Shown: positions 22,031-41,203 of the stretch, piece by piece
Position numbering within the stretch: position 1 is the first letter of the stretch
Layout of the letters: each line of letters starts with the position of its first letter
Assembly: GCA_965112635.1 (NCBI GenBank)
Contig: OZ218778.1
Location: 2,510,966-2,574,965, forward strand
Source of the DNA: an uncultured bacterium
Lineage (GTDB): Bacteria > Oederibacteriota > Oederibacteriia > Oederibacteriales > Oederibacteriaceae
Direction of reading: 5' to 3'
Length of the DNA: 64,000 nt
Made by a program: the position numbers and the translations under genes
The notes under the pieces: generated by a model
What the model saw: only the letters and a program-made list of their open reading frames with translations
Database searches by the model: none
What the model was told of the DNA's origin: nothing

Positions 22031-22060
22031 GATGGCCTAGGGCTCACCGAAGGCGGCCCT

Positions 22061-22339
22061 TCAAAACTCAACCCCAAAATCCGTAAAACTACCCTGATAG
22101 GGTTCCCAGACAATATTAACATCCGTCACCCGGCTCATGGGCGGGCCTGTCTTCAGTTCGTTGACATACTCCTCTATATTACTTTTACCACCCTCTACCA
22201 CAGTTTCCACATTGCCGTCTGGAAGATTCATCACATACCCCCTCAACTCCTGCTTTCTCGCCTTTTCCTCCGCGAAATAACGGTAGCCCACCCCCTGCAC
22301 CCTGCCTTTGATAGTGATCCTTGCCCTTGCGTCAGCCAT
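22061..22339 (-). CDS. acyP: Acylphosphatase
   Basis: A 92-aa product with the acylphosphatase signature ITIKGRVQGVGYRYF. Confidence 0.85.
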   Translation of the reverse strand: MADARARITIKGRVQGVGYRYFAEEKARKQELRGYVMNLPDGNVETVVEGGKSNIEEYVNELKTGPPMSRVTDVNIVWEPYQGSFTDFGVEF

Positions 22340-22431
22340 CGCTTGCCCCTTCCATCATCTGGTCATCCCCCTTGCACTGGGCGACAGCTTTAGCTGGAGC
22401 CCAGCCCGTAGCCCCAAAGGGCGGAGGTGCA

Positions 22432-23305: not shown

Positions 23306-23752
23306 TCACTGCTTCATAATGACGCAGTCTTCCTTGAAAATGATCAAGTTGCCGGCCACGCTGTTCAGCAAAAAAGGCAGGCCTTCCCTGTAGGAGACCT
23401 CCACCCTGTATCCGGTAAGGTCCATCCCGAGGATGCCGAGGATATCCATGACTTCCGAAAGATCAGGGCCCAGGGTGCTGGTCACGGACACGCTGAGGTT
23501 ACCGGGGTTCATTCCCATAGCGCCTCCGCACACATTCTGCCTCAGCCAGTATTCGATCTGCGGCACGCTGGCTCCTCTGGCGTATTGCACGGCCGCTTCT
23601 CTCGCGGCCATGGTCAGCCGGGTCTTATGGACCAACAAAGAGCCCGTCCATACCACAATGACCAGGAACAAGGCGAGGAACGGGAAAATGATGACGGTTT
23701 CCATGAGCGCCTGGCCTTTCTGGCCCCTGATGCGGGATTTATTAGTGGGCAA
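23306..23752 (-). CDS. TadE-like pilus assembly protein (Flp/Tad pseudopilin)
   Basis: The N-terminal GQALMETVIIFPFLALFLVIV has the TadE-like prepilin-type hydrophobic segment with Glu at position +5. Confidence 0.65.
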   Translation of the reverse strand: MPTNKSRIRGQKGQALMETVIIFPFLALFLVIVVWTGSLLVHKTRLTMAAREAAVQYARGASVPQIEYWLRQNVCGGAMGMNPGNLSVSVTSTLGPDLSEVMDILGILGMDLTGYRVEVSYREGLPFLLNSVAGNLIIFKEDCVIMKQ

Positions 23753-24701
23753 TATTGGCCACCCCCGCTTTGTTCAGTACATTTATGATGGAGCTAAGCT
23801 CCGGGACGACTAGATCCTCCAGCATAAAAGGCTGGAAAAACGCCGAGTAAAACTTGTAGGGATTGGTTGGGTCCAGGTCCACCGGAGCAAGGGTCCCGCC
23901 GCCTATGCCGGCTTCGGACACCGCGTACATCTGGTCATACATCTTGCCCAAACCAAACAGCCCGAAGGACATGGGCCAGGACTGCTGCGGCTGGGTGCAA
24001 AATACCGCCACGCGGTGGTCCGTGACAGTCTCCACGATAAGGGCATCGCCGTTCTCTTTTTTCGGAGGGTTTTCCCTCACATAGATATAGGACATCCCGC
24101 CCTCTCCGACGCCTCTATAATGCCACCTGCCTCTCCTGTCCTGCGAACATTCGTCCTCGCTCACAGTCACGCGGGGTGAGCCGTCCTTGGGCTGGTAGGA
24201 AAACGTTCTTTTTCCAGTGTCCTGGCCAAAAATGGAATCGACCAAGGTCAAGCGGTCCACGGCCAAGGAAGGGTTCAAAACTTCGCCGTTGATGGCCACG
24301 ATGGGAGACGGCGGGACATTCACCAGGTGCTGGCAACCGTTTTCTTGGGCGATGTACAGGGCCTCCAGTTGGATCAGTCTGGGCCCCAGATTCATGATGA
24401 TATCTTGGGGAATACCAAACAATTTCCTGACATTCGGGTCAATCCCCGTGTCCAAAAAAACTCCCGTGTCAGATGCCCAGGCTACGCAATAGGCCGTGTT
24501 CAAAATTTTTAGTCCATTCAAACATTTGGCGTATACTTCCGCCCCGCTCAGGGCGGCCGCGTCGCAGCTGTTCTGCAGTTTTATCCTGTTCCTCACAGCC
24601 ACCCCGGCGTTGACCATAAAGGCAAGGAAAATAAAAAGGGTGGGTATGAGGAGCAGGAGGAGGACCAGGACCTGGCCTTTGTTTTTTTTCTTTTTCATCG
24701 G
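23742..24701 (-). CDS. TadE/TadG-like Tad pilus protein
   Basis: The start at MKKKKNKGQVLVLLLLLIPTLFIFLAFMVNAG is a TadG-like N-terminal hydrophobic segment. The gene overlaps its neighbours by a few nt, consistent with an operon. Confidence 0.5.
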   Translation of the reverse strand, partial: PMKKKKNKGQVLVLLLLLIPTLFIFLAFMVNAGVAVRNRIKLQNSCDAAALSGAEVYAKCLNGLKILNTAYCVAWASDTGVFLDTGIDPNVRKLFGIPQDIIMNLGPRLIQLEALYIAQENGCQHLVNVPPSPIVAINGEVLNPSLAVDRLTLVDSIFGQDTGKRTFSYQPKDGSPRVTVSEDECSQDRRGRWHYRGVGEGGMSYIYVRENPPKKENGDALIVETVTDHRVAVFCTQPQQSWPMSFGLFGLGKMYDQMYAVSEAGIGGGTLAPVDLDPTNPYKFYSAFFQPFMLEDLVVPELSSIINVLNKAGVANIAH

Positions 24702-25150
24702 AACATCTCCATCGGCATGCTCCAGGAGCTGTGGAAGGGCAAAGCGGGTTTGCCCCATATATTTATTTTTGCAGGATCGCTGTTGAGCAGTATCACCCGG
24801 TCAACCAGCGGGAAGACTAGGGGCTCATAATAGATGATATCCACATTGACCCCGTAAAAATTGGGTGTCGCCAGGGACGCGGTGGCAAAGGGAACCTTGA
24901 CCCAGTTTGCGGAAAGGAACGGATAGGACGACCGCATGACCCCTGCGGCAGCCTGGTGAGCGATCCACTGCGGGTCTTCGTAATGCACGCAAGCGGACCT
25001 GGCCCCCATATAGGCCGCGTAATCCACCAGGAATTTGGTCTTGAACAGCATCACAATTTGCATCAGGCAAAAGATAAAGAGCAGGACCAGCGGCAGTATG
25101 ATGGCCAGCTCCACGGTGGCCTGGCCCTTTGGGGCCCTGGGTAATCTCAT
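24695..25150 (-). CDS. TadE-like pilus assembly protein
   Basis: With the start at MRLPRAPKGQATVELAIILPLVLLFIF, the product has the typical TadE N-terminus. I trimmed the longer ORF because it overlaps lnt. Confidence 0.6.
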   Translation of the reverse strand: MRLPRAPKGQATVELAIILPLVLLFIFCLMQIVMLFKTKFLVDYAAYMGARSACVHYEDPQWIAHQAAAGVMRSSYPFLSANWVKVPFATASLATPNFYGVNVDIIYYEPLVFPLVDRVILLNSDPAKINIWGKPALPFHSSWSMPMEMFR

Positions 25151-26589
25151 GCGCCCGCCTCCCTTTTTTTGCGGATAAACCATTCCACGAGCATCCAGCC
25201 CAGGCACAAAACGCACAGCTTCAGGCAGCAGGGCGCGAACAACCAGCCCCAACGGCTGTAAAAAGTGCCGCCTGTCCGCATATAGGCCGTGCCCACCAGC
25301 ACCCCTTCCTGGTCCAAAGGCATGGCGTTTTGGATCTCTCCCAAGGGGTCAATGATCTGGGACACTCCGGATGAGGCGGCCCGGACCAGCCACAAGCCTG
25401 ATTCCACGGCCCGCATAGGGGACATGGCCGAATGCTGGAGGCGCTGGACATCGCCCCAGTCCGAAGGGTCCAGATTGGGGTCAACCAAAAGCTGGGCTCC
25501 GTCCCTGACCAGCTTGCGGGTGCCGTTCTCAAAATCCAGGTCATAACATATCTGGATGCCCAGCTTGCCCAGGCTGGTCTCTAGCGGCCTGGGATCACGG
25601 TTGGGAGGCAGGGGCCTTTCCACATAGGGGATGGGATGCTGCTTGTCGTAGCGCCCGATCAATTTCCCTGCAGGCGACAGGGCCCAGACAAAATTCTGCC
25701 ATCTCCCCTTTTTCAGGTCTTCGGACACGATATTGCACCCGACCAGGGTAATGGCCTTGGTCCCTCTAAGGCTCCGGCTCAATAATTTGAAATAGGCGTT
25801 TTCCTGTCCGGGCTGGATGGGAAAAGCGTCCTCGTGCCACACGCACAGGTCTGCGTTTCGTGCCGCCGGAATGAGGCTTAGCCTAGCCAGGGTTTCCAGG
25901 GTGCAAGACTCGCTTTGCACCAGGGCCACGGTCACAGGCTTGCCGTCTTTGGTCAGGAAATGGGACATTCGGTACCCCCCCCAGAACCAGGCCACGGCCA
26001 GCAAAAGCAGGGGCAGCAAAAGGCCCAGCAGAGACTTTTTGCGGCACAGGACCAAACTCACGCCGGCATTGACCCAGACCACTAGAGCGGACAGGCCGTA
26101 AATGCCCAGGATGCTTGCGGACTGCCGGATGTTGCTGTTCACGGACTGGCTGAATCCCAGGCTCATCCAGGAATTATTGAGCCACCAGACCTCTGACCTG
26201 AAAAATTCCAGCCCTGTCCAAAACAAGCCGGCCAGCAGCACCCAGACAAACCTGCGGTCCTTTCCCTGTATAAAACGCTGGTCCCAGGCCCAGGCTAGCA
26301 GCATCATGTGCAGGGCCATGAAAATGGCCAGGACGCACCAAAAGGCGACGGCCACGACCCCAAACAGCTTGAGGAACCAGTTGAGCGACAGGCCGTAAAA
26401 GACCAGGCCAGCCACGGCTCCCAGGTTGGCTGCCGGGCGGATGCCCTGGCTGTGCAGCACAGCGTAAATAAGGGGGACCAGGGCCACCCAGATGATGGGA
26501 CAGGTGGGATAGGGAGGGAAAGACAGGAAAAGCAGGACGCCGGACAGGACAGCCAGCAACCACGGAAATACTCTGGAAAATATTTTCAA
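25147..26589 (-). CDS. lnt: Apolipoprotein N-acyltransferase (Lnt)
   Basis: A 480-aa product with an N-terminal multi-transmembrane region and a C-terminal CN-hydrolase domain (catalytic Cys context GIQICYDLDFE). Confidence 0.85.
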   Translation of the reverse strand: MKIFSRVFPWLLAVLSGVLLFLSFPPYPTCPIIWVALVPLIYAVLHSQGIRPAANLGAVAGLVFYGLSLNWFLKLFGVVAVAFWCVLAIFMALHMMLLAWAWDQRFIQGKDRRFVWVLLAGLFWTGLEFFRSEVWWLNNSWMSLGFSQSVNSNIRQSASILGIYGLSALVVWVNAGVSLVLCRKKSLLGLLLPLLLLAVAWFWGGYRMSHFLTKDGKPVTVALVQSESCTLETLARLSLIPAARNADLCVWHEDAFPIQPGQENAYFKLLSRSLRGTKAITLVGCNIVSEDLKKGRWQNFVWALSPAGKLIGRYDKQHPIPYVERPLPPNRDPRPLETSLGKLGIQICYDLDFENGTRKLVRDGAQLLVDPNLDPSDWGDVQRLQHSAMSPMRAVESGLWLVRAASSGVSQIIDPLGEIQNAMPLDQEGVLVGTAYMRTGGTFYSRWGWLFAPCCLKLCVLCLGWMLVEWFIRKKREAGA

Positions 26590-27544: not shown

Positions 27545-28678
27545 TCAGCCCTTGAGCTTCAGCGCCGCCATGACCTGGTCCGTGATCTGGTTGATCAGGG
27601 CTTCGGTTTCCGGGGCAGCCGGGCCCGCGGCCTTGCTTTTGCCGCAATTCCCAGGGCAGGCCGAGGTACCGTGCACTTTACAGCAGCCCTTGGCTCCTGC
27701 CTGGCATTCCTTGGGGCAGACCGTGATGCCGCAATTCTCTATAGGAACATCGCACAGGGCGCACTCCTTGCCCGTGAACCGGGGGTCCACGATGCCCAGT
27801 TTTCTCTTTGTTTCAAGGAGGGCCGTGGTCTCGTTGTCCGATATCCGGGTGATGGGCTGTCCCAGCTGGGCGGCCAGCATCAGGGTCCGGCAATAGGTCT
27901 CCACGACCTCCACGCACCATTCCGCGTGGGTGACCGAATCAGCCCAGCAAACCAGGCCGTGGTTTCCCATCAGGATGGTGTTGTGGTCTTTGGCCAGGGG
28001 CACGACCTGGTCAGCCACGCTCTTGGTTCCCGGTGTGCCATAGGGAGAAAAAGCCACCATGCCCACGAATATTTCCGCCTCAGGGATGATGCAGTTAGGC
28101 GGGGTAACCCCGGTAATGGCGTAGGCCGTGGCGTGCGGCGGATGGGCGTGGACACAGGCTTTGGCCTTGGGCTGGGCTTTCATGATCTCCAGATGCAGGA
28201 TGATCTCGCTGGTGCTTTTGTTGTGGCCGGCCACCTGTTTGCCGTCCTCCAGCCTGACCATGCAGATGTCTTCCACGGTCAGGTCATTCTTGCTGACCAG
28301 GGTGGGAGTGCACAGCACGTACTGGTCCGAGATGCGGTAGGAAATATTGCCGCCGTTGCCGTCCACAAAATCCCGCTGCCATAATTTCCTGCCGGTCTGC
28401 ACCATTTCTTTTTTGATGGCCATGGCTTCACTGGAATTGAACAGCGACTCAATGGAGCCGAAATAGGCCTTGGGGCCTGCCGGGGTGGCCAGGACCGGCC
28501 TCATGATAACGACCGCGGTCCTTTTGACCGTGATCCCATGGCCCACCACGATATCCTTGGCCGTGGAGGTCACCACCGCGTCGCTGGACAAGACGATCTC
28601 CCCTGCTCCGGCGTTGACCGCCGCTTCCAGGTCCCTGCCCGTGATCACCGCTTTTCCCTGCAGGTCCATGCTGTTCAT
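27545..28678 (-). CDS. Class II aldolase (fuculose/rhamnulose-1-phosphate aldolase family) with an N-terminal extension, a Cys-rich C-terminal segment and a C-terminal amphipathic helix resembling a BMC encapsulation peptide
   Basis: The aldolase_II core carries the metal-binding His pattern (HAHPPHATAY...MGNHGLV). The C-terminal CALCDVPIENCGITVCPKECQAGAKGCCKVHGTSACPGNCGKS is followed by the amphipathic ETEALINQITDQVMAALKLKG. It is the first gene of the BMC operon. Confidence 0.85.
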   Translation of the reverse strand: MNSMDLQGKAVITGRDLEAAVNAGAGEIVLSSDAVVTSTAKDIVVGHGITVKRTAVVIMRPVLATPAGPKAYFGSIESLFNSSEAMAIKKEMVQTGRKLWQRDFVDGNGGNISYRISDQYVLCTPTLVSKNDLTVEDICMVRLEDGKQVAGHNKSTSEIILHLEIMKAQPKAKACVHAHPPHATAYAITGVTPPNCIIPEAEIFVGMVAFSPYGTPGTKSVADQVVPLAKDHNTILMGNHGLVCWADSVTHAEWCVEVVETYCRTLMLAAQLGQPITRISDNETTALLETKRKLGIVDPRFTGKECALCDVPIENCGITVCPKECQAGAKGCCKVHGTSACPGNCGKSKAAGPAAPETEALINQITDQVMAALKLKG

Positions 28679-28696
28679 TTTCTCCTCACCCCTTTT

Positions 28697-29005
28697 TTAA
28701 TTAGTTTTTGGGCCGTCGATCGGCCTGTAATCGATCTGTTCCACGATCAAACCGCAATAAATATCCACCGCTACATTCCTCGGATAATAGGCGTTGGTGC
28801 CTTCCCGGCCTTCCACATAACCAACCGTCTGTCCCACGGCCGGGTTGAGATGGGTGGCCACCACGACCTGGCGGCCCGTGGCCGCGCCCTTTTTGCTCCG
28901 TAGATCTTCCCGGGTCAGCGTGTCCACGATCAGGAAATGCGTATCCGTAAGCTCCGGGATGAGCTTGTGGTTCACGACTTTGCCTCTCACGATGCCTAAG
29001 TTCAT
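28697..29005 (-). CDS. BMC vertex protein (BMC-P, EutN/CcmL/PduN family)
   Basis: A 102-aa EutN/CcmL-like protein (MNLGIVRGKVV...). It overlaps the upstream BMC-P gene by 4 nt. Confidence 0.85.
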   Translation of the reverse strand: MNLGIVRGKVVNHKLIPELTDTHFLIVDTLTREDLRSKKGAATGRQVVVATHLNPAVGQTVGYVEGREGTNAYYPRNVAVDIYCGLIVEQIDYRPIDGPKTN

Positions 29006-29268
29006 CGGCTCACCTCGTCCACGATGCCTATGACCACCAGGCGGCTCGGCGTGCTCTTGTCGTTGGTCACACGGCGGGCATGGTCCCCGTCCGTGGAAAC
29101 CATCACCAGGGAGCCGTATCCGGCCCCGATATTGTCCATGATGATCTGCGGGTCGCCCTCGGGCTGGTAGTCCGCGTTGACCCTCTGGCCTATTAAAAGC
29201 CTCTGGTTTTGGAAGCTTTTGTGCTTGGCCGTGGAGGTCAAAGTGCCTTCAATTCTGGCTAAGAACAT
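29002..29268 (-). CDS. BMC vertex protein (BMC-P, EutN/CcmL family)
   Basis: An 88-aa product (MFLARIEGTLTST...GSLVMVSTDGDHARRV..VVIGIVDEV) with a typical EutN-fold sequence. Confidence 0.85.
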   Translation of the reverse strand: MFLARIEGTLTSTAKHKSFQNQRLLIGQRVNADYQPEGDPQIIMDNIGAGYGSLVMVSTDGDHARRVTNDKSTPSRLVVIGIVDEVSR

Positions 29269-29279
29269 TGGTTGCTCTC

Positions 29280-30749
29280 CTAGGTAAAATTCAAATTGCC
29301 GCCGATGACCAGCTGGCGCTGTCTCGTAAAGGTCAGCGGGGTGGTCACTCCCTCGCCGGTCGGAGTGGCAATGCTGTAGCTCAGGTATCCCGGCCCGTCC
29401 AGCCCCAGGCTGGCCGCGCAGTTGGCGTTCTGCACAAAGAGCGTGGTGTTCATGGCCCTGGCCATCCTGCTCACATTGTTGATGTTATTGGAATGGATGA
29501 GCGCGGTATGCTTATAGCCATGCTCGGCCTTGACCGCCGCCCGTATGGCCTCGTCGATATTGGGCACCCTGACAATGGGAACAAAGGGCATCATCTGCTC
29601 TTCCTGGACGAACGGATGGTCCTCGTCGGTCTCGCCGAATAAAAGGTCCACCTGGCCGCTCAATTTGAGGCCGGCCGCCTCCGCCAGGAAACTGGTGTCC
29701 CGGCCAATGAATTCGCGCTGGACATGGGCCTGGGCGCAGCCGGCGCCCTTGTCTTTTTCCATGGTAAAAGCCTTCTGGGTGAGCTTGGCGATCTGCTCCT
29801 GGTTGAGCTCCACGGCTCCTGCCCTTTTCATGGCCGCGATAAAGGCGTCCGCCACGCTCTGCAGGACGAACACCTCTTTTTCCCCGATGCAGAGCAGGTT
29901 GTTGTCAAAAGAAGCGCCCTTGATGATGTCCTGGGCCGCTTTGTCCAGGTTGGCGGTCTCGTCCACTACGACCGGCGGATTGCCCGGCCCGGCGGCGATG
30001 ACCCTCTTGCCCGCTTTCATGGCCGACCTCACCACAGCCGGCCCGCCCGTTACGCAGAGGAGGGCGATGTCCTTGTGGTGAAAAAGCTCCACAGCCGACT
30101 CGATGGACGGTTTTTCCACGGTGCAGATCACGTTCTCCACGCCGGTCTTCCGGACGATCTCCCGGTTTATGGACCGCAGGGCGTGCACAAAGCATTTGCT
30201 GGCCAAAGGATGGGGGCTAAAAACGGCTGTGTTGCCCGCGGCAAGGATATTGATGGCGTTGCCGGCCATGGTCGGAACCGAATGCGTGGCCGGGGTGACC
30301 ATGCCGATGACCCCAAAAGGCGCGTAAGCGGTCAGGCTCACGCCGGTGTGGTCGCTGCGGGCCCCTGTCCTCAGGGCCTCCACGCCGACCACCTTTTTGA
30401 CAAGTTTTAGCTTCTCTATTTTATGGTCCATCCTGCCGATCTTGGACTCTTCGAACTCCATCCTGCCCCAGTTTTCCGCCTGCTGTTCGCACATCTCGCG
30501 GATGACCTTGATCATGACATCCCGCTCGTCCAGGGTCATTTGCTTGACCTTTTGCTGGGCGGCCAAGGCCGCGGCCACCGCTTCGTCCATGGTGGAAAAC
30601 ACTCCGTCCGAGCCGCCTGTGCCGCCCCGAGGAGCCGCGGTCCTTACGGGGGCTGTATCTTCTTTTAAATGGGGCTGCAAACGCCGGACCACTTCCTGCA
30701 CAATGGCGGAAACGTCCACATCCTTGCCCTGTATCGTGACTGTAGCCAT
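29280..30749 (-). CDS. CoA-acylating aldehyde dehydrogenase (PduP/EutE-like) with an N-terminal encapsulation-peptide-like helix
   Basis: A 489-aa ALDH-superfamily protein with catalytic Cys in DNNLLCIGEKE. The N-terminal VDVSAIVQEVVRRL is an amphipathic helix separated from the core by a Gly/Pro-rich linker. Confidence 0.9.
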   Translation of the reverse strand: MATVTIQGKDVDVSAIVQEVVRRLQPHLKEDTAPVRTAAPRGGTGGSDGVFSTMDEAVAAALAAQQKVKQMTLDERDVMIKVIREMCEQQAENWGRMEFEESKIGRMDHKIEKLKLVKKVVGVEALRTGARSDHTGVSLTAYAPFGVIGMVTPATHSVPTMAGNAINILAAGNTAVFSPHPLASKCFVHALRSINREIVRKTGVENVICTVEKPSIESAVELFHHKDIALLCVTGGPAVVRSAMKAGKRVIAAGPGNPPVVVDETANLDKAAQDIIKGASFDNNLLCIGEKEVFVLQSVADAFIAAMKRAGAVELNQEQIAKLTQKAFTMEKDKGAGCAQAHVQREFIGRDTSFLAEAAGLKLSGQVDLLFGETDEDHPFVQEEQMMPFVPIVRVPNIDEAIRAAVKAEHGYKHTALIHSNNINNVSRMARAMNTTLFVQNANCAASLGLDGPGYLSYSIATPTGEGVTTPLTFTRQRQLVIGGNLNFT

Positions 30750-30765
30750 AAGAAGTTCTCCTTTT

Positions 30766-31062
30766 TTACGGCTTGTTGACTAACTTGCCTTCGACCTCGA
30801 TGGAATCCACGATGCCGATGATGACCGTGTCCACCGGCGCGTCCTTGGTGGCGTCCGTGAACCGGGCCGAACTGCCCTGGGTGAACATCACGAACTCTCC
30901 CTTGCCCGCTCCCACGCTGTCCACGGCCACGAAGGTGTTGCCCGTCGGAGCCCACTTGCCTTCCTTGGTGATGAAAGGCTGCACGTAGAGCAGTTTCATG
31001 CCCTGGCATTTTTGGTTCTTTTGGGACGACACCACTTGTCCGATAACTTTGCCTAATAACAT
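30766..31062 (-). CDS. BMC vertex protein (BMC-P, EutN/CcmL family)
   Basis: A 98-aa product (MLLGKVIGQVVSSQK...VIIGIVDSIEV). This is the third pentamer paralogue. Confidence 0.85.
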   Translation of the reverse strand: MLLGKVIGQVVSSQKNQKCQGMKLLYVQPFITKEGKWAPTGNTFVAVDSVGAGKGEFVMFTQGSSARFTDATKDAPVDTVIIGIVDSIEVEGKLVNKP

Positions 31063-31125
31063 GGTTGGCTCTCTTTCCCGCGCCGGTCGCTCAACACGGA
31101 CCGGCCTCGATTTTTGAAAAAAGGG

Positions 31126-31395
31126 TTACGGCAGTACTATTCCCAGGCTGTCATGCGGCCGGGGAATGACCTGGACGCTGACGACCTGTCCGGCTTCCTT
31201 GGCGGCCACCGCTCCGGCGTCCACCGCGGCCTTGACCGCGGCCACCTCTCCCACCACGAAGCAGGTGCAGAACCCGCTGCCTACTTTTTTCCACCCTTTG
31301 AACTGGACGTTGGCCGACTTGAGCATGGCGTCCGTTGCCAAAACCAGAGGCGTCAGGCCCTTGGTCTCGATCATTCCTATCGCTTGCTGTGCCAT
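31126..31395 (-). CDS. BMC-H hexameric shell protein (PduA/EutM-like)
   Basis: An 89-aa product with IGMIETKGLTPLVLATDAMLKSANV, a canonical BMC domain. Confidence 0.9.
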   Translation of the reverse strand: MAQQAIGMIETKGLTPLVLATDAMLKSANVQFKGWKKVGSGFCTCFVVGEVAAVKAAVDAGAVAAKEAGQVVSVQVIPRPHDSLGIVLP

Positions 31396-31426
31396 TTGCC
31401 TATCTCCTTTCCCCTTTTAGGGATAT

Positions 31427-32575
31427 TTAATTTTTATTCCCGATGACCTGGGCTGCGGCCCTGGCCACGACGATCTCTTCGTTCGTTTTAATGACCCACA
31501 CGGCGACCTGGGAATCCTCGCTGGAAATCCTGGTCTCCTGGTCGCCCAGGGCCTGTTCATTCCTGCTTGGGTCCAGCTTGACCCCGGCCCACTCCAGGTT
31601 GCTCAGCACGTTCTTGCGGACAAGGGGGTCCTTTTCTCCGATCCCCCCCGAAAAGGTGATGATATCCACCCCGTTGAGGCACACAAAAAAAGACCCCAGA
31701 TACCGGCGCACCCCGTAGGTAAAGGCATCAATAGCCAGTTGGGCCTGGGAGTCCCCGGCCCCTGCCGCTTTTTTGATGTCCCGCATGTCCCCGCCCTTCC
31801 CGCTCAAGCCGGCCAGGCCGGATTCTTTGGACAGGATGAGGGTGGTCTGTTCGATGGTCAAACCGAGCTCTTTCATCAAATAAAGGATGGCAAAAACATC
31901 CACGTCGCCGACCCGGTTGTTCTGCGGCAGGCCGCTCTGCGGGGTCATGCCAAAACTGGTGTCCACGGCCACCCCGTCCTTGACGGCGGCCATGCTGGAA
32001 CTGCCTCCCAGATGGCAGGAAATATGCCGCAGGTCCTTTTTATCGCAAAGAGCCTTGGCCCGCAAAGAAGCGTAGTGGTGGCTGGCCCCGTGGAATCCGA
32101 GCTTTTTAATATGCTGTTCTGTCCTCCATTTATAAGGCAGGGCGTAGGCCGACACGCAATCCGCCATGGAATCGAAAAAGGCGGTCTCGAAAAGGGCCAC
32201 CAGAGGAACTTTGGGGGCCACCTGCTGGAAAGCCCTCATGGCCGCGATGTAGGGAGGGTTATGGGCCGGGAAAAGGAAATTGTAGCTTTCCATGGCGTTT
32301 AAAAGCCTCTCGTCTACCCGGTGGCAGCCGCTCATGTCCTTGGCCCCGATGGTCTTGAAACCCACTCCGCTGAGTTCGGACAGGGACTGCAGGGGTTTGC
32401 CCGGTCCCACCATTTCCTTGAGGGAAGCGTCGATGGCGTCCTCGTAATGCAGGAATTGTCCGCCCTGCTGGCCTATCCGCTCGACTCTGCCTTCGCTCAG
32501 CACGGTCTCGGTTTCCATCTCATAGAGCCTGTATTTGAATGAGGTGCTGCCAATGTTGGCCACCAATATTTTCAC
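31427..32575 (-). CDS. ackA: Acetate/propionate kinase (AckA family)
   Basis: A 382-aa product with the N-terminal MKILVANIGSTSFKYRLYE, the acetate-kinase phosphate-binding start. It is embedded between shell genes. Confidence 0.85.
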   Translation of the reverse strand: MKILVANIGSTSFKYRLYEMETETVLSEGRVERIGQQGGQFLHYEDAIDASLKEMVGPGKPLQSLSELSGVGFKTIGAKDMSGCHRVDERLLNAMESYNFLFPAHNPPYIAAMRAFQQVAPKVPLVALFETAFFDSMADCVSAYALPYKWRTEQHIKKLGFHGASHHYASLRAKALCDKKDLRHISCHLGGSSSMAAVKDGVAVDTSFGMTPQSGLPQNNRVGDVDVFAILYLMKELGLTIEQTTLILSKESGLAGLSGKGGDMRDIKKAAGAGDSQAQLAIDAFTYGVRRYLGSFFVCLNGVDIITFSGGIGEKDPLVRKNVLSNLEWAGVKLDPSRNEQALGDQETRISSEDSQVAVWVIKTNEEIVVARAAAQVIGNKN

Positions 32576-32596
32576 TGCGTATTGCTCCTTGAACGG

Positions 32597-32872
32597 TTAT
32601 TTTAAAAACCCTTCCTCAATGCACTCGTGGGGCTGGGAAATCACGTGGTAGGCCGCCAACTCGCCGTTGACCGCCTTGACCGCCGCGATACCGGCATCCA
32701 CGGCCGCTCTGACGCTGCCCACATCGCCTTTGACGATGGTGGTCACCAGTCCGCCGCCGATCTGGATATTGTGCAAAAGCTCCACCTTGGCCGCCTTGCA
32801 CATGGCGTCGCTGGCGTTGACCAGGCCTGCCAGGCCTCTGGTCTCTATCATTCCGATCGCTTCGTTCATCAA
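32597..32872 (-). CDS. BMC-H hexameric shell protein
   Basis: A 91-aa product with IGMIETRGLAGLVNASDAMCKAAKV. Confidence 0.9.
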   Translation of the reverse strand: MMNEAIGMIETRGLAGLVNASDAMCKAAKVELLHNIQIGGGLVTTIVKGDVGSVRAAVDAGIAAVKAVNGELAAYHVISQPHECIEEGFLK

Positions 32873-32894
32873 AGTGTCTCCTTTTTAAAAGTTA

Positions 32895-33182
32895 TTATTT
32901 GCCTTTCTTGTTCCCCGGCTCCGCATAGTTGGACAACTCTTCGTGCGGGTGAGGGATCACCTGGGCGCTGACCACCTTGCCCAGCTTGGCCGCGGCTTCC
33001 GCGCCGGCGTCCACCGCCGCTTTGACCGCTGCCACATCGCCTTCAACAAAAGCGGTCACCAGGCCTGAACCGGCCGGCTCCCACTTAAGGAAGTTCACGT
33101 TGGCCGCCTTGCACATGGCGTCCACGGCTTCGATCAGCGGAACCATGCCCACGGTCTCGATCATTCCTAGAGCGTTCTTCAT
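32895..33182 (-). CDS. BMC-H hexameric shell protein
   Basis: A 95-aa product with LGMIETVGMVPLIEAVDAMCKAANV. Confidence 0.9.
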   Translation of the reverse strand: MKNALGMIETVGMVPLIEAVDAMCKAANVNFLKWEPAGSGLVTAFVEGDVAAVKAAVDAGAEAAAKLGKVVSAQVIPHPHEELSNYAEPGNKKGK

Positions 33183-33241
33183 TGGGTCATCTCCTTTCTT
33201 TTAGAATCGTGTCCGATCATGGAACAAAAACCCTCTCAACA

Positions 33242-33919
33242 TTATTTAAATAGTTCGACGTTCTTGGCGCGGTGCAAGCCGCAGGCATTCGCTTCATCCG
33301 TGTCCAGATGGACTTCCAATTTTGATTTGGGCTCCACCCTCACGTGGACCTTGTCGAAAACGACCTCAGTGTCGCCGGTGGAGACCCGCAGTTTCATGAT
33401 GTCCTTGTGCTTGACCCCGTAGTATTCCGCATCAGACGGGCTCATGTGCCCGTGAATAGCCGCGCGGACCACGCCTTCTTTAAGTTCCAGCAGACCTGCC
33501 GGCCCCATCACATACGCGCCCGGTGTTCCTTTTATATCCCCCGAGATGCGCACTGGCACATTCTCGATACCCAGGGTGATGGCGTCGGTGTAGGCCAGTT
33601 CGATCTGGGTGTAATTCCGCAGGGGTCCGAGGATACGCATATTGGAGATGAGGCGGCTCTTGGGCCCGATAAGGGTCACGGTCTCTTTGGCCGCGTAAAA
33701 ACCATCCTGGTAAAGGTCTTTAAAAGGGGTGAGTTTGGCGCCTGGCCCGAATAGGATTTCCAAGTCGGATTGCTTGAGGTGCATGTGCCGGGCTGAGGCG
33801 TTGACCACCAGGGGCGACGGCTTGCCTTTCCCTGGGGCTGGGGTACTTTTAGAAGCTGTTTGTTCCAATAGAACTTGCCGGACTACATCGGCAACCATGG
33901 ACCTGGTCAAGTTGGCCAT
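33242..33919 (-). CDS. pduL: Phosphotransacylase PduL (PTAC) with an N-terminal encapsulation-peptide-like helix
   Basis: A 225-aa product with PduL-like duplicated segments (ARHMHLKQSDLEILFGPG...; AAIHGHMSPSDAEYYGV). The N-terminal MVADVVRQVLLEQ is an amphipathic helix. Confidence 0.85.
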   Translation of the reverse strand: MANLTRSMVADVVRQVLLEQTASKSTPAPGKGKPSPLVVNASARHMHLKQSDLEILFGPGAKLTPFKDLYQDGFYAAKETVTLIGPKSRLISNMRILGPLRNYTQIELAYTDAITLGIENVPVRISGDIKGTPGAYVMGPAGLLELKEGVVRAAIHGHMSPSDAEYYGVKHKDIMKLRVSTGDTEVVFDKVHVRVEPKSKLEVHLDTDEANACGLHRAKNVELFK

Positions 33920-34030
33920 AAAACAACCTCCTTATTAAACTGGCCAAAGTATACTTCCACAATCGGTCAAAGTCAATCAAAATAATTCAATATCTTCCAT
34001 AATTGTTCAAAATGTGCTATACTCCTTGAT
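33920..34030. promoter_or_regulatory. Divergent intergenic region between pduL (minus) and deoR (plus). It is AT-rich and contains a TGnTATACT extended -10-like element at 34015-34023.
   Basis: 111 nt at about 30% GC in a 58%-GC genome. The TG-c-TATACT is read directly. I could not identify a convincing -35 element or operator. Confidence 0.3.
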
Positions 34031-34786
34031 ATGAAGGCAGCATTGCGTCAATTGAAAATAGAGGAATCTTTCAAGCAGACGGAGTTTATCGATTCTGAGA
34101 CCCTGTGCAAGAAGTTCCAAGCCTCAGAATCGACCATCCGCAGGGACCTTTCTGAACTGGAAAAAAAGGGGCTTATCCGGAGGGTCCATGGCGGTGCTTT
34201 GTCGCTTCACCTGCAGGATGACCATATGGATTTCGCCTATAGGAGCGCCCAGTCCTCCCAGGAAAAGCGCCGCATCGGCCAGGCAGCCGCGACTTTGGTC
34301 AAGGAAGGCACGACCATCATCTTGGACGGCGGTTCCACGGTGGCCGAGGTGGCCCGTCACCTGAATGGCAGGACGCTGCAGGTCATCACCAACTCCATTC
34401 CCATTGCCGAGATCTTCCACGACTCGCAAACCGTGGATGTTTCCCTGACCGGCGGATATCTCTATCCCCGTTCGGGCGTCCTGATGGGCCATTTTTGCGA
34501 GCAGATCCTGTCCATGATCAAAGCCAACACGGTCATTATGGGAATCGGAGGGATCAGCGAGAACGGGTTGAGCAACTCCAACTCGCTTATCGTGGGACAG
34601 GAAAAGAAAATGATCGAAGTCTCCAACCGGGTCATCATCGTGGCCGACCATACCAAGTTCGGCCACGACTCCACGATCTTTTTGGCTCCCCTGGAAAGGG
34701 CCAACGTCGTGGTCACGGATACCCTGGTGGACCCAAAATACGTCACCCTGCTGAAATCCCGCGGGGTCAATGTCTTAGTGGTGTAA
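34031..34786 (+). CDS. DeoR-family transcriptional regulator
   Basis: N-terminal HTH (ETLCKKFQASESTIRRDLSELEKKGLIRRVHGGA) and a C-terminal DeoR sugar-phosphate-binding domain. It is divergent from the BMC operon. Confidence 0.85.
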   Translation: MKAALRQLKIEESFKQTEFIDSETLCKKFQASESTIRRDLSELEKKGLIRRVHGGALSLHLQDDHMDFAYRSAQSSQEKRRIGQAAATLVKEGTTIILDGGSTVAEVARHLNGRTLQVITNSIPIAEIFHDSQTVDVSLTGGYLYPRSGVLMGHFCEQILSMIKANTVIMGIGGISENGLSNSNSLIVGQEKKMIEVSNRVIIVADHTKFGHDSTIFLAPLERANVVVTDTLVDPKYVTLLKSRGVNVLVV

Positions 34787-34795
34787 AGGAAGGTC

Positions 34796-36091
34796 ATGGC
34801 TGATTTCATCCAGGATAACGGGGTTGTCGGAGCCGGAGGAGCCGGGTTTCCCACAGCGGTCAAACTGCAGGCCAAGGTCTCCACTTTTATCGTCAACGCG
34901 GCTGAGTGCGAACCCCTGTTGCACAAGGACAAGGAACTTCTGGCCAACTATCCCGATGAATTTTTCAAGGGATTGGAAACCGCCATGTCCCGCACCGGCG
35001 CCGACCAGGCTGTCATCGGGATCAAGAACAAATACCACGCACTCATTGACTCCCTGCAGGGTAGTTTGCCCAGGTCGGTAAAAATCCACCCGCTGGACGA
35101 CATTTACCCTGCCGGAGATGAGTTTATTCTTGTTTATGACATCACGGGCAAGATCATCCCCCCAGGCGGCCTGCCTTTGCAGGTGGGCTGCGTGGTCAAC
35201 AATGTCGAGACTCTGGTCAACATTGGCCTGGCTAGGCCTGTGATTTCCAAGTTCGTGACGATAGCCGGCGCTGTTAAAGATCCTTGCACCCTCAATGTCC
35301 CCCTGGGCACACCCATTAGCCAGCTGATCTCAGCTGCCGGAGGTGTCACCAGCTCCGAATACGGCGTTCTGGTAGGCGGGGTCATGATGGGCCGCCTGCT
35401 GACCGACCCCCATGAACCGGTGACCAAAACAACGGGCGGAGTGCTGGTTTTCCCTGCTGACCATATTTTGCTGAAACGTTATGGCCGGACGCAAAAAATG
35501 ATTGACCGCATCGGTCGTTCTGCTTGTGACCAATGCAGCATGTGCACTGAAAAATGCCCCCGTTACCTGCTGGGCCACCCCATAGAACCGCATAAAGCCA
35601 TGCGGGCCTTGGGTTTTGCTCCTGAAAAGGACAGGATGATCATGGGCACACTGTATTGCTGTGAATGCAACCTTTGTTCCTTTGTATCCTGCCCTGAGGA
35701 CCTGGATCCCCGTTCGGTCTGCGCTCAGGCCAAGACCAAAGCCAGGGAAAAGAACCTTAAATGGGCCGGTTCCCCACAAGACATACAAAGTCATACCATG
35801 CTTCCCTATCGCCGCACTCCTACCAGGATTTTGTTCCAAAAACTGGATTTGAACGGTTTCACGAACAAGGCACCTCTGCAAAAGCAAAAATTGAGCGTTT
35901 CCAAAGTCGTCTTGCCTTTACGCCAGCATGTCGGGGTGGCTTGCGAACCAGTCGTGAAAATTGGTCAAGCGGTCAGGGAGGGTGAGCTCATTGCCAAGGT
36001 TCCTGAGGGAAAATTGGGCGCTCCACTGCATGCCAGTATTAGCGGAACAATCAAGGAAATAACGGGCACGATCACTATCGAGGCGAATTAA
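34796..36091 (+). CDS. PduS-like RnfC/NuoF-family Fe-S flavoprotein
   Basis: It has the GGAGFPT nucleotide-binding motif of the Complex1_51K/RnfC fold and two 4Fe-4S ferredoxin motifs (CDQCSMCTEKCP; CCECNLCSFVSCP). The C-terminal barrel-like domain is about 90 aa. The 431-aa length compares with about 450 aa for PduS. Confidence 0.75.
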   Translation: MADFIQDNGVVGAGGAGFPTAVKLQAKVSTFIVNAAECEPLLHKDKELLANYPDEFFKGLETAMSRTGADQAVIGIKNKYHALIDSLQGSLPRSVKIHPLDDIYPAGDEFILVYDITGKIIPPGGLPLQVGCVVNNVETLVNIGLARPVISKFVTIAGAVKDPCTLNVPLGTPISQLISAAGGVTSSEYGVLVGGVMMGRLLTDPHEPVTKTTGGVLVFPADHILLKRYGRTQKMIDRIGRSACDQCSMCTEKCPRYLLGHPIEPHKAMRALGFAPEKDRMIMGTLYCCECNLCSFVSCPEDLDPRSVCAQAKTKAREKNLKWAGSPQDIQSHTMLPYRRTPTRILFQKLDLNGFTNKAPLQKQKLSVSKVVLPLRQHVGVACEPVVKIGQAVREGELIAKVPEGKLGAPLHASISGTIKEITGTITIEAN

Positions 36092-36105
36092 AAGGAGGTT
36101 TAGCT

Positions 36106-36666
36106 ATGCCGGAGATCAACACCATCGGGATCGTCGAACTGACCAGTATCAGCCTGGGTTACCAGGTCCAGGACGCCATGCTCAAAACCGCCGCGGTCAG
36201 CCTGATCCTGGCCCGCTCTGTTTGCCCGGGCAAATACCTGATCGCCATCACCGGTGATGTTTCCTCGGTCAAGGCCAGCGTGGCCACTGGCGTGGCTATG
36301 GGCGCTGGAGCCGTGGTGGAGCAGGGCGTCATCGCCAACATTCACCCTTCGATCTTTCCGGCCCTGGCCCAGTCCGTGGAGGTCCCTCCTGAAGGAACTG
36401 GAGCTATGGGTGTCGTGGAAACATTTTCAGCTGCCAGCCTCATCGTGGCAGCGGATGCCGCGGCTAAAACAGCCGAGGTGACCATGTTACGGGTTTATTT
36501 GGCCATGGCTATCGGCGGGAAAGCATACTGTTTGATGACCGGGAAGCTGGGCGATGTCGAAGCGGCCGTGGAAGCCGCGGCCCAATCAGCGGGCGAAAGC
36601 GGCATGCTGGTCAGCAAGGTAGTCATCCCCGCTCCTCACCGGGACCTTTTCAAAGAATACATTTAA
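36106..36666 (+). CDS. BMC-T tandem-BMC-domain shell protein (PduT-like)
   Basis: A 186-aa product with two BMC-domain repeats (IGIVELTSISLGYQVQDAMLKTAAV.. and MGVVETFSAASLIVAADAAAKTAEV..). The Cys in SVCPGK is at the PduT-like pore position. A strong SD (AAAGGAGG) precedes it. Confidence 0.8.
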   Translation: MPEINTIGIVELTSISLGYQVQDAMLKTAAVSLILARSVCPGKYLIAITGDVSSVKASVATGVAMGAGAVVEQGVIANIHPSIFPALAQSVEVPPEGTGAMGVVETFSAASLIVAADAAAKTAEVTMLRVYLAMAIGGKAYCLMTGKLGDVEAAVEAAAQSAGESGMLVSKVVIPAPHRDLFKEYI

Positions 36667-36789: not shown

Positions 36790-38478
36790 GTGATAGCACT
36801 CTGGCCAGTGGATAGTCTTACCAAAGTTTTCCAGGATGACCCAGTCCCGCGCTATAGGGAGAGAGCCATCGATCTTTTTGTGGCCAGGGGTGCCGTGGAA
36901 TCAGCCCAGTGCGCATTCCAATCCGACAAGGACTTGACCGGATTTGAGGTCATGATCGACCCACCCCGGCTCCGCTCCAACCGCAAGCTCTGTCTTGGGG
37001 ATATTAAATGGCGCCGGGTGGAATATGTGCCGGTGCGCCGGCCTTCCTGGTATCTGGACCCAACACAGCGGCTCCGGAACACCGCGGGTTTTTTCCCTGA
37101 CCCACTAATAAACCCGGAAAATTTTCCCAAATTTTACAGCCCTCCAGCCGCTCATCCGGGCCTTTTGCCTCTAGTCACAGGGCACTCCACTATCCCCCTC
37201 TGGCTCACCCTGTCCATTCCGGAAAAAGCTGTGCCTGGCCTTTACACGGGTTCCCTGACCATCAAAACGCCCCAAAGTTCCCGGAGCATTAAATTGAACG
37301 TGGAAGTCTCTCCGGCCATTTGCCCCCAGGAGCGGACCCTAAAACTGACCCATTGGTTCAGCCCCCAGAACATCGCTAAAGCCGGAAAAGTAAAACTCTG
37401 GAGCCCTCAGCACTGGAAATTGTTATCGCACTGGGGCCGCGACCTGGCCCTGCACCGCGCCAATGTTATCTTTACTCCCTTGTCCGACCTTCTTCACCTC
37501 ACCAAAAAAGGAAACAGGCTCCGTATCGACTTCTCGCGGTTTGATAAGTGGGTCAGAACTTTCCAGCAGGCAGGCGCCATAGGGTATATTGAAGGCACTC
37601 ATCTGGCCAGCCGCATCAACAATTGGCAAAGCCAATACGGCTTGAATCCCTTTATCATTCATAAGGAGGGTGGAAAGACCGAGAACCTCAATAAATGTCC
37701 GGCCCAAAATCCCCGCTGCCGCGCCTTTCTGAAAGATTTCTTGGCCCAGCTCAGCGCTCATCTTAGGGAAAAAAACTGGGATTCTTTTTATTATCAGCAT
37801 GTGGCCGATGAGCCCATCCCGGAAAACACCGCTTCCTACCGCGCACTCACGGATATGGTCAGGGAATTCGCGCCTGGCCTGCCCATTCTGGACGCCCTGC
37901 TGGGCTCCGAGGCACTGGCCGGGACCGTCAATATCTGGTGCCCCCAGTCCCAGGAAGCGGAAAAGCATCTGGAATTTTTCCACTCACGCCAGGCTCTGGG
38001 CGAGGAAATATGGCATTACACCTGCTGCTCCCCCAGTCAGAAATTCCCTAACCGTTTCCTCAACCAGCCGCTCCTCGGCACCCGTCTCCTGCACTGGTTC
38101 AATCACAAAGCGGGGCTGACCGGTTATTTGCACTGGGGCTTTAACTTTTGGGTATCCGGAGGTTTTCCCGATGCCAACCCCTTTACCGACACCGAGACCA
38201 CGGAAACTTACGGGACCACCCGGCTCCCGGCAGGCGACAGCCACCTGGTCTATCCCGACCCGGACGGCAAACCGTTGGACTCCATTCGGCATGAGATGGT
38301 GCTGGAGGGAGTGCAGGATTACGAACTATTGCAGGTGCTCAGCCGCAACGACCCGGACAAAGCCATGCGTTTGGCTAAGGCAGTTCTGCCTACCTTGGTA
38401 GAATACGAAAAAAAGCCTGCGGTTTTCAGGAAAATCAGGGCCGAACTTCTGGCAGGGGTTGCCCGGGCCCAGGGATGA
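36790..38478 (+). CDS. Hypothetical glycoside-hydrolase-like protein (DUF4091/GH123-like, tentative), GTG start
   Basis: A 562-aa product with no signal peptide. An SD (AAGGAG) lies 6 nt upstream of the GTG. The WHYTCCSP segment and the overall size are reminiscent of DUF4091-containing GH-like proteins. The call is weak. Confidence 0.4.
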   Translation: MIALWPVDSLTKVFQDDPVPRYRERAIDLFVARGAVESAQCAFQSDKDLTGFEVMIDPPRLRSNRKLCLGDIKWRRVEYVPVRRPSWYLDPTQRLRNTAGFFPDPLINPENFPKFYSPPAAHPGLLPLVTGHSTIPLWLTLSIPEKAVPGLYTGSLTIKTPQSSRSIKLNVEVSPAICPQERTLKLTHWFSPQNIAKAGKVKLWSPQHWKLLSHWGRDLALHRANVIFTPLSDLLHLTKKGNRLRIDFSRFDKWVRTFQQAGAIGYIEGTHLASRINNWQSQYGLNPFIIHKEGGKTENLNKCPAQNPRCRAFLKDFLAQLSAHLREKNWDSFYYQHVADEPIPENTASYRALTDMVREFAPGLPILDALLGSEALAGTVNIWCPQSQEAEKHLEFFHSRQALGEEIWHYTCCSPSQKFPNRFLNQPLLGTRLLHWFNHKAGLTGYLHWGFNFWVSGGFPDANPFTDTETTETYGTTRLPAGDSHLVYPDPDGKPLDSIRHEMVLEGVQDYELLQVLSRNDPDKAMRLAKAVLPTLVEYEKKPAVFRKIRAELLAGVARAQG

Positions 38479-38484
38479 AAAACT

Positions 38485-39708
38485 CTACCTCACCAATTCC
38501 GACAATTTACACCCGTCGCGGGGGATAAATTTCCTCCAATAATCCACTGAAACTTTCATCCTGTCCAAAATATCCGCGTTGATGTCGGCCGTGGCTGAAA
38601 AGATCTCCAGGGTCATATAGATCTTTTCGCAGGTCCGAGGCATACCCTCAACTTGCGGCCCGCGATAGGACTCAGCCAGGGCACTGATAACCCTTTGCGG
38701 CTGGACCACGCCGGCCTTGTTGTTCTGCGGGGTAAAAGCCAGATGATGCGAGGACCTGCCGTCTGTCTGCTGTAGATGGATGATGGGCGAATAGCAGCCC
38801 AGCTCGGCCAGCCAGGCATAAAGGTCGCCGTCCTGTACCTGGGAAAAAAGATAGGGATACTGGTCCATGACTTCTTTAATGCTCCGGATAGCCTTGTCGT
38901 CGTTTTTTGCTGACTGCCTGAGAGCCTGCTGGAAAATATTTCTGGCCTTCATCGGGCCCAGCCACAACCCCTGGAGGCTTTTTCCTTTCCTCCCTGCTTT
39001 CATGGCGGCAAGGATTTGGCTGGAAGTGGGATAACAGTATTTCCTTTGGCCGGTCTGATGTCCCGTGTCTATGGCGATGTAAAACTGATGGCCGCCCCGC
39101 CTATAAACCTCTCTTAATAATTTTTTGGTGCCTGGAATGGTCCAGGGTATTTGGTGGGGAGCATACATCTGCTCCACTCCGACCGAGTCCACCCCGTGGT
39201 TAGCGCAAAACCCGGCCAAGCTGGCCAGGTTATTATAAAGCTCTTCCTCCGCATCTTGGTATCGGACCGGGTCCTGCAGCACAGCTTCGGAAAAGGCATG
39301 GCAAAAAAATCCGAGGTCCGCTTTGCACTGGCTGGCCAGCAGGGCCAATGGCTTGAGCCACTTTTCCAGCATCTTTTTTCTGACCCGCCCGTCGGTATGG
39401 GACAAACCCAGGGTGGTATAGGAGCCGTGACCTGAATAAAAATTGGCTATTTTAAATCCATGCTTCCGGCAGCTCCTGTTGACTTCCCTGACCCAATCCT
39501 TGAGATATCCCTGTTCCATATAAAAAGGGTCGCATTCGTTGTCCGCGCTGGCTTCCGCGTAATGGATGCCAAAGCTCTTGATGACTTTGACCCATTCCTC
39601 GGGTTTGGTCCAACGCTTGACGGCAAAACAGTTGTCCACCGCCAGATAGATTTTGGGGTCCACAGGGACAGTATCTTTCTTGGAATAAGTATTGGTTTTG
39701 GGTCGCAT
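38485..39708 (-). CDS. Hypothetical protein (possible TIM-barrel sugar isomerase/epimerase-like) in the rhamnose gene cluster
   Basis: A 407-aa ORF co-directional with the rhamnulokinase gene and abutting its end (39708). No definitive motif. Confidence 0.4.
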   Translation of the reverse strand: MRPKTNTYSKKDTVPVDPKIYLAVDNCFAVKRWTKPEEWVKVIKSFGIHYAEASADNECDPFYMEQGYLKDWVREVNRSCRKHGFKIANFYSGHGSYTTLGLSHTDGRVRKKMLEKWLKPLALLASQCKADLGFFCHAFSEAVLQDPVRYQDAEEELYNNLASLAGFCANHGVDSVGVEQMYAPHQIPWTIPGTKKLLREVYRRGGHQFYIAIDTGHQTGQRKYCYPTSSQILAAMKAGRKGKSLQGLWLGPMKARNIFQQALRQSAKNDDKAIRSIKEVMDQYPYLFSQVQDGDLYAWLAELGCYSPIIHLQQTDGRSSHHLAFTPQNNKAGVVQPQRVISALAESYRGPQVEGMPRTCEKIYMTLEIFSATADINADILDRMKVSVDYWRKFIPRDGCKLSELVR

Positions 39709-41201: not shown

Positions 41202-41203
41202 GG

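Follow-up and report, generated by a model that had tools for sequence, protein, structure and literature searches.

An aldolase-type microcompartment locus with an MNdh/BMC-T^SE module and no alcohol dehydrogenase gene nearby

Among bacterial microcompartments (BMCs), the canonical planctomycete/verrucomicrobial (PVM) metabolosome is restricted to Planctomycetes and Verrucomicrobia and contains two BMC-H along with three different BMC-P shell proteins (Axen 2014; Sutter 2021); it includes an Ldh/Mdh-family gene as the predicted alcohol dehydrogenase (AlcDH; ADH in family names) that recycles NAD+ (Axen 2014). More recently, the pair formed by PduS and the Fe-S-type PduT was renamed MNdh/BMC-T^SE, and proposed to be a metabolosome NADH dehydrogenase with an electron-conducting shell trimer (PMC11626177, PNAS 2024): electron paramagnetic resonance, with a homologue from C. 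botulinum, shows that the BMC-T cluster is reduced in an NADH-dependent manner. In the same study 97% of MNdh genes adjoin a BMC-T with CP(G/S)K, 361 loci hold PduS/T without an AlcDH, and the module occurs 20 times among 285 PVM loci, in 18 of these 20 cases in a satellite locus. Also pertinent is MIC4, a type catalogued by Sutter 2021 (Supplementary Data 2), in which ‘MIC’ stands for ‘incomplete core’, i.e., no AlcDH. Its description comprises an aldehyde dehydrogenase (AldDH) with an N-terminal encapsulation peptide (EP), a phosphotransacylase (PTAC), a pfam00596 aldolase, a pfam00871 acetate kinase, a BMC-P triplet, and an in-operon PduS with a pore-cysteine PduT; the type, described on the basis of 15 loci (Actinobacteria, Bacteroidetes, Calditrichaeota, KSB1, Firmicutes and Ignavibacteria), was defined by shell-protein ‘colour’ typing with hidden Markov models (HMMs) and by placement in the AldDH tree (with MUF2/MUF3). 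Here we analyse a locus at positions 27545-36666 of a 64,000-nucleotide stretch (the window; contig OZ218778.1, positions 2,510,966 to 2,574,965) from an uncultured bacterium of the Oederibacteriota. We consider it probable that this locus encodes a DeoR-controlled L-rhamnose metabolosome in which NAD+ is recycled by MNdh/BMC-T^SE, and not by an AlcDH.

Layout of the locus and comparison with described types

Judged by its gene content, the locus is a real and intact BMC (metabolosome) gene cluster. An initial annotation had described a complete, divergently transcribed BMC locus, and all 13 genes that it named are indeed intact open reading frames (ORFs) scoring above Pfam gathering thresholds (ORF list for 24-40 kb, and Pfam scans). 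In order of transcription, the minus strand encodes a PduL-type phosphotransacylase (33242-33919, 225 residues; Pfam PTAC, 224.7 bits), two BMC-H hexamer shell proteins (32895-33182, 95 residues, Pfam BMC 94 bits; 32597-32872, 91 residues, 86.5 bits), an acetate/propionate-family kinase, AckA (31427-32575, 382 residues; Acetate_kinase 295.6 bits, and TIGR00016 297.5 against a cut-off of 293.4), a third BMC-H (31126-31395, 89 residues, 87.8 bits) with a PRPH edge motif in its sequence, a BMC-P pentamer-vertex protein (30766-31062, 98 residues; EutN_CcmL 97.9 bits), a CoA-acylating AldDH of the PduP/EutE type (29280-30749, 489 residues; Pfam Aldedh, and NCBIfam NF011927 at 586 bits against a cut-off of 403), two further BMC-P proteins (29002-29268, 88 residues, 84 bits; 28697-29005, 102 residues, the divergent member of the triplet, at 39 bits against a cut-off of 25), and the signature enzyme, a class II (FucA-type) aldolase (27545-28678, 377 residues; Pfam Aldolase_II, E=9e-43). 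The spacing between these genes is at most 63 bp, and one pair, the BMC-P genes at 28697-29005 and 29002-29268, overlaps by 4 bp. The plus strand carries a DeoR-family transcription regulator (34031-34786, 251 residues; Pfam HTH_DeoR and DeoRC), then, across gaps of 9 and 14 bp, a PduS-like flavoprotein (MNdh; 34796-36091, 431 residues) and a PduT-type tandem-domain shell trimer (BMC-T^SE; 36106-36666, 186 residues, two Pfam BMC domains). An intergenic region of 111 bp separates the two diverging blocks. In domain terms, the shell set has three proteins with a single BMC domain, one with a tandem pair and three of the EutN_CcmL family, a clustering of PF00936 and PF03319 in which every member exceeds its gathering score.

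We compared this layout with that of the 80 nearest aldolase loci in species-representative genomes, a set to which the window’s own genome does not belong and which consists almost entirely of metagenome-assembled genomes (MAGs) of Acidobacteriota (Aminicenantes, Terriglobia, Bryobacteraceae). Public assemblies (ENA ERZ25039471; an NCBI contig) hold identical proteins in the same neighbourhood; the next-best aldolase after these is 58% identical, and the best relative found for PurC is 68% identical. The core order PduL-H-H-AckA-H-P-AldDH-P-P-aldolase is the same in six relatives (L003, L004, L005, L009, L083 and L084). The full enzyme set is present in 44 of the 80 loci, 40 of which also have DeoR, and MNdh is found in 50 of the 80 (45 of the 63 loci whose sequence extends 9 kb or more upstream of the aldolase). 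Identity to the window is similar for all genes, at about 45-69% (55-69% for AldDH), and so the MNdh module seems to have the same history as the genes around it. A shorter form without MNdh was also seen, in L013, L018, L023, L027, L039, L046, L060, L079 and L085: it consists of PduL, a BMC protein of about 190 residues, BMC-H, AldDH, aldolase and DeoR, mostly without AckA and sometimes without BMC-P. In L085, the only short-form locus whose neighbourhood was inspected, there is no ADH nearby.

Of the described types, MIC4 is the one that this gene set would fall under. The main-locus enzymes, the placement of EPs, the BMC-P triplet, the PduS with a pore-cysteine BMC-T, and the absence of an ADH agree with the catalogue description in all listed points, whereas the closest relatives of the window come from Acidobacteriota and not from the phyla that supplied the MIC4 loci. 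The name is used here as a compositional assignment, made by comparing the gene set with the catalogue description. The initial annotation had called the locus PVM-like. The composition behind that label holds, in that the locus shares with PVM (as described by Axen 2014 and Sutter 2021) the class II aldolase (PF00596), AldDH, PduL, acetate kinase, DeoR, three BMC-P proteins, and probably the pathway from fucose or rhamnose to lactaldehyde. The name itself needs correcting: the window has three BMC-H proteins plus BMC-T in place of two BMC-H, its 64 kb hold no Ldh/Mdh-family gene that could serve as NAD+ recycler, and its MNdh module stands in the main locus, whereas in PVM this module is rare and mostly satellite-encoded. 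Furthermore, ‘PVMlike’ is already in use for a Firmicutes type related to GRM5 (whose AldDH, PTAC and BMC-P have their nearest counterparts in GRM5; Sutter 2021), in contrast to the Acidobacteriota relatives of the window with their 55-69% AldDH identity. Two rhamnose/fucose-related types of Clostridia were also compared. MUF3 shares the AldDH, PTAC, acetate kinase, an aldolase with the same EP placement, and PduS/PduT, but it is confined to Clostridia and has a single BMC-P. GRM5 is represented among the best structural matches of our AldDH (4C3S); it has in addition an ADH and a propanediol dehydratase of the glycyl-radical type, both of which are missing from the window. The ACI type, which has a 2-hydroxyacid dehydrogenase in its main locus and a satellite AldDH with an EP near the C-terminus, was considered and rejected: there is no PF00389 or PF02826 match, and the AldDH is in the main locus with an N-terminal EP.

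Cargo enzymes, the MNdh/BMC-T^SE module and the search for an alcohol dehydrogenase

The core of a metabolosome is evident in the combination of an acylating AldDH and a phosphotransacylase with EP-type helices on the cargo, from which targeting to the lumen is predicted. In AldDH the amphipathic helix is N-terminal (approximately residues 11-25, motif (V/I)xxIVxEVxxRL) and is followed by a variable linker; in PduL it is likewise N-terminal (approximately residues 5-20, motif RxxVExIVRxV), again with a linker behind it, and the PduL core structure 5CUO aligns only from residue 34 onwards. The aldolase has its helix at the C-terminus (approximately residues 356-372, motif ExEALIxxITDEVMKAL) behind a variable tail. 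All three motifs are conserved in alignments of the related loci (18 relatives in the case of the aldolase), the linkers to the enzyme cores are poorly conserved, and the hydrophobic moments are 2.25 for AldDH, 1.84 for the aldolase and 1.49 for PduL, to be read against local background values of 1.50 at the 95th percentile and 1.77 at the 99th. These data bear out the earlier proposal that the aldolase, AldDH and PduL carry terminal helices of the EP type. Neither AckA nor the PduS-like protein has a terminal extension, and the N-terminus of AckA is flush with those of its relatives; AckA is probably cytosolic, where it would convert acyl-phosphate and ADP to the acid and ATP. AldDH has a putative catalytic cysteine, Cys287, in the motif NNLLCIGEKE, and its best matches in the Protein Data Bank (PDB), 5JFL, 6GVS and 4C3S, are BMC-associated acylating AldDHs. 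PduL is assigned the role of recycling CoA.

The aldolase is a larger protein than its catalytic core. In the AlphaFold2 (AF2) model a 54-residue N-terminal α/β domain is followed by a linker, the core (approximately residues 76-297), a disordered Cys-rich tail and the C-terminal EP helix; FucA structures in the PDB match residues 87-296 only, and the FucA-type residues Glu158, His177, His179 and His240 are invariant among the 18 aligned relatives. We also noted that the N-terminal domain (residues 1-54) has a β-α-β-α-β order, is modelled with a pLDDT of about 87, and is common to all relatives. Neither this domain nor the Cys-rich tail has a Pfam match even at E=10; a profile search of the PDB with these parts returned only spurious repeats in designed TIM barrels, and a Foldseek search of the PDB with the confident model of the domain gave no match at E≤0.001. 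The tail before the EP (residues 298-354) contains nine cysteines here, versus a median of two in 77 relatives. The idea that it forms a conserved metal site of the family was rejected, as only Cys306 is invariant and the median count in relatives is so low.

Another key observation concerns the two plus-strand genes downstream of deoR. The PduS-like protein has the Pfam domain order Complex1_51K, SLBB, Fer4_17 (with two 4Fe-4S motifs) and, at its C-terminus, RnfC_N; residues 125-415 of RnfC (PDB: 7ZC6) align with its residues 3-300. Taken together, this alignment and the C-terminal position of RnfC_N confirm the circular permutation described for MNdh. An NADH/FMN site, GAGGAGFP, is located at residue 12, and the two 4Fe-4S motifs, of the CxxCxxCxxxCP type, span Cys244-Pro255 and Cys288-Pro300. 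The adjacent BMC-T has a pore cysteine, Cys40, in a CPGK motif (residues 40-43). PduT structures 3PAC and 3N79 match this protein at E values of about 1e-45, and its CPGK falls in the alignment on the CPGK by which PduT binds its cluster. Across 50 homologues this cysteine does not vary, and every homologue beside an MNdh gene retains it within a motif C[SP]GK, which reads CPGK in the window versus CSGK in relatives.

In domain order, FMN/NADH and 4Fe-4S motifs, the adjacent CP(G/S)K-bearing BMC-T, and the setting in an AldDH-containing locus that lacks an AlcDH, the pair does not differ structurally from the published MNdh/BMC-T^SE module (PMC11626177). Transfer of electrons from NADH to the BMC-T at this locus would follow by analogy with that work. 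The proposal in the initial annotation that the PduS-like protein and the Fe-S-type BMC-T act as an electron conduit was thus right in substance; the ‘variant wiring’ that it saw in this is not new, having been published in PMC11626177, and is the rule in the closest relatives. We can name only one local peculiarity, the grouping of MNdh and BMC-T with deoR in one divergent unit: in the window the pair shares its transcript with DeoR and points away from the cargo operon, whereas in close relatives it is co-directional or lies at the opposite end of the locus.

No lactaldehyde reductase had been seen in or next to the locus, and we can extend that statement to the whole 64-kb window. All ORFs outside the locus that encode 150 residues or more were scanned with Pfam, and none is an Fe-ADH, a Zn-ADH, an Ldh/Mdh or a 2-hydroxyacid dehydrogenase; the stretches outside the scanned ORFs are each shorter than 900 bp, and the scan covers 27 kb on each side of the locus, on a contig of at least 2.88 Mb. 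Similarly, in the Pfam-labelled neighbourhoods of three related loci, the nearest 10 kb are free of ADH-type and Ldh-type dehydrogenases.

Likely substrate, proposed pathway and rival explanations

The nature of the substrate is suggested by an adjacent minus-strand operon (38485-43816), which encodes an MFS transporter (42485-43816; Pfam MFS_1), an L-rhamnose isomerase (41204-42388; E=1.5e-85 to 2HCV, the L-rhamnose isomerase of P. stutzeri), a rhamnulokinase (39708-41201; TIGR02627 rhamnulo_kin) and a TIM-barrel protein resembling xylose isomerase (38485-39708, 407 residues; weak PDB matches only and no NCBIfam match). The TIM-barrel gene is apparently co-transcribed with that of the rhamnulokinase. 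Since the isomerase, kinase and transporter genes adjoin the locus, and neither a fucose isomerase nor a fuculokinase was seen among the scanned genes of the window, rhamnose is the most likely substrate. The initial reading of a 6-deoxyhexose compartment that processes lactaldehyde is thereby supported, and it can be narrowed: the substrate is probably L-rhamnose, possibly with other 6-deoxyhexoses, and the aldehyde is likely to be lactaldehyde, with lactyl intermediates to follow.

We envisage a pathway in which rhamnose would enter through the MFS transporter and, in the cytosol, be acted on first by L-rhamnose isomerase and then by rhamnulokinase, which would phosphorylate it. The EP-tagged acylating AldDH would convert lactaldehyde, CoA and NAD+ to lactyl-CoA and NADH; the EP-tagged PduL would regenerate CoA and make lactyl-phosphate, from which the untagged AckA homologue, probably outside the shell, would form lactate and ATP. 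NAD+ would be regenerated by MNdh, through its FMN and two 4Fe-4S clusters, with electrons passing to the pore of BMC-T^SE, where Cys40 would hold a 4Fe-4S cluster, and presumably onwards to a cytosolic acceptor. Some observations weigh against this scheme. No ferredoxin, flavodoxin or cytochrome gene adjoins the locus, and an EP-bearing ADH could lie elsewhere on the 2.88-Mb contig, of which the scan covers 64 kb. None of the NCBIfam equivalog cut-offs is even approached by the aldolase (its highest scores are with FucA-type models, and the RhaD model scores weakly); its substrate specificity is therefore not fixed by sequence, and we infer rhamnose from the neighbouring genes. Among these, the isomerase and the rhamnulokinase both fall just below their equivalog cut-offs (497 bits against 528 for the latter).

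Bearing these points in mind, we weighed an ordinary ADH-dependent metabolosome, for which a lactaldehyde reductase (Fe-ADH or Ldh/Mdh type) would be encoded elsewhere and packaged, with MNdh/BMC-T^SE as a conditional supplement. There is precedent for such a dual arrangement: 1,725 loci hold both NAD+ recycling systems, and satellite loci often encode the MNdh module, so that the parts of a BMC need not all lie together (PMC11626177); moreover, the scan covers 64 kb of a contig of at least 2.88 Mb. On the other hand, neither the 27 kb on either side of the locus nor the 10 kb around three syntenic relatives contain a gene of this kind, the catalogue files this gene set as ‘incomplete core’ because it is without AlcDH, and the MNdh/BMC-T pair belongs to the main locus in 50 of 80 relatives. 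We regard an ADH-dependent organelle as unlikely. A good deal less probable still is the proposal that the PduS-like protein is a cobalamin reductase serving a B12-dependent enzyme, which is the original PduS assignment: Salmonella PduS was characterized as a corrin reductase (cited in PMC11626177), and the window does contain a CbiQ component of an ECF-type transporter (1344-2279). Yet that gene is 32 kb away and part of a generic ECF transporter, the signature enzyme of the locus is a metal-dependent aldolase, and Pfam scans of the locus and the rest of the window detected neither a B12-dependent enzyme nor an adenosyltransferase or reactivase. We rejected a B12-related role because the window contains no B12 enzyme, and hold its chance of being correct to be minimal.

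It could also be argued that a different ketose phosphate is processed, giving an aldehyde other than lactaldehyde, and that the rhamnose genes are neighbours by coincidence. The best NCBIfam match of the aldolase, itself below cut-off as are all its equivalog scores, is the model for 3-oxo-tetronate-4-phosphate decarboxylase, and class II aldolases are promiscuous (Axen 2014); moreover, most relatives are without adjacent rhamnose genes, a kinase adjoining the locus only in L009, L028 and L084. However, in the window L-rhamnose isomerase, rhamnulokinase and transporter are immediately adjacent, the kinase gene that follows the aldolase in L084 is of the FGGY family, and published work indicates that growth on fucose and rhamnose depends on the homologous compartment of PVM. 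We therefore judge this explanation to be quite improbable, though somewhat less so than the B12-related one. An L-rhamnose metabolosome with NAD+ recycling through MNdh/BMC-T^SE is the reading that we favour.

A broader interpretation is that the window and its relatives represent an uncatalogued but widespread clade of aldolase metabolosomes (Acidobacteriota, Aminicenantes and the lineage of the window), in which MNdh/BMC-T^SE is the sole and obligatory NAD+ recycler and the N-terminal domain and Cys-rich tail of the aldolase are possibly organelle-specific. We think this doubtful. If it were true, all lactaldehyde carbon would flow to lactyl-CoA and ATP with the reducing equivalents exported to respiration, and the two aldolase extensions could serve metal or Fe-S binding, or docking to the shell.

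Control region, neighbouring genes and significance

The divergent intergenic control region (33920-34030, between pduL and deoR) contains an 18-nucleotide direct repeat, CTTCCAYAATYGKTCAAA, in two copies (33954-33971 and 33994-34011) that are 40 nucleotides apart. This repeat is a candidate DeoR operator; it is not conserved as such in related loci, so that its assignment stays at the level of a candidate, although the deoR/pduL intergenic regions of relatives are likewise rich in TCAAA/TTTGA. DeoR itself is present in 61 of 82 loci examined, and would be the regulator of the compartment genes. A σ70-like match directed toward pduL (33976-33948) agrees at 10 of 12 positions; promoter and terminator scans of the region as a whole were not above chance.

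Directly downstream of the BMC-T gene is a GH123-family glycoside hydrolase-like protein (36790-38478, plus strand; Pfam GH123_cat, 224.8 bits), which may release the substrate sugar, and an α-L-rhamnosidase-like protein is weakly matched at 15793-18888. Also of interest is a small acylphosphatase gene at approximately 22060-22340 (minus strand, some 5 kb away from the locus; publicly annotated on this contig as PF00708): its product could hydrolyse acyl-phosphates made by PduL, a hypothetical link. Genes for assembly of a Tad/Flp pilus (TadE/TadG-like) lie directly beyond the aldolase end of the locus, together with one for an apolipoprotein N-acyltransferase (23742-25252 and neighbours).

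Further from the locus, three minus-strand paralogues of about 750 residues (2333-4594, 4641-6944 and 8498-10771) are 73-76% identical and have near-identical N-termini (…LVRIENSRSS.GVEKKTGWIRSMVWKDKQIDLF); none of the three matches a Pfam or NCBIfam family. Two plus-strand paralogues of 972 residues (46766-49684) and 996 residues (50835-53825), 74% identical to each other and also without a family match, have hydrophobic N-termini resembling signal peptides, and they flank an AraC-family regulator on the minus strand (49770-50669). A glycosylhydrolase-like protein of 1094 residues (53914-57198) has short segments similar to these two paralogues, and a weak tail resembling a T9SS sorting domain. 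An Rfam scan of the whole 64 kb gave no hit to any family, tRNA and rRNA included.

The mechanism and the composition of the locus have both been published before: MNdh/BMC-T^SE is described in PMC11626177, and the gene set is catalogued as MIC4 (Sutter 2021). Current understanding is therefore unchanged. What the locus does offer is a compact, 13-gene candidate for tests of electron export in a sugar-degrading organelle, free of an AlcDH in its vicinity and with the module placed in the main locus beside the regulator. The arrangement is common in MAGs of soil Acidobacteriota, and it matters for predicting how the carbon and the reducing power of deoxy-sugars are routed in soils and peat.

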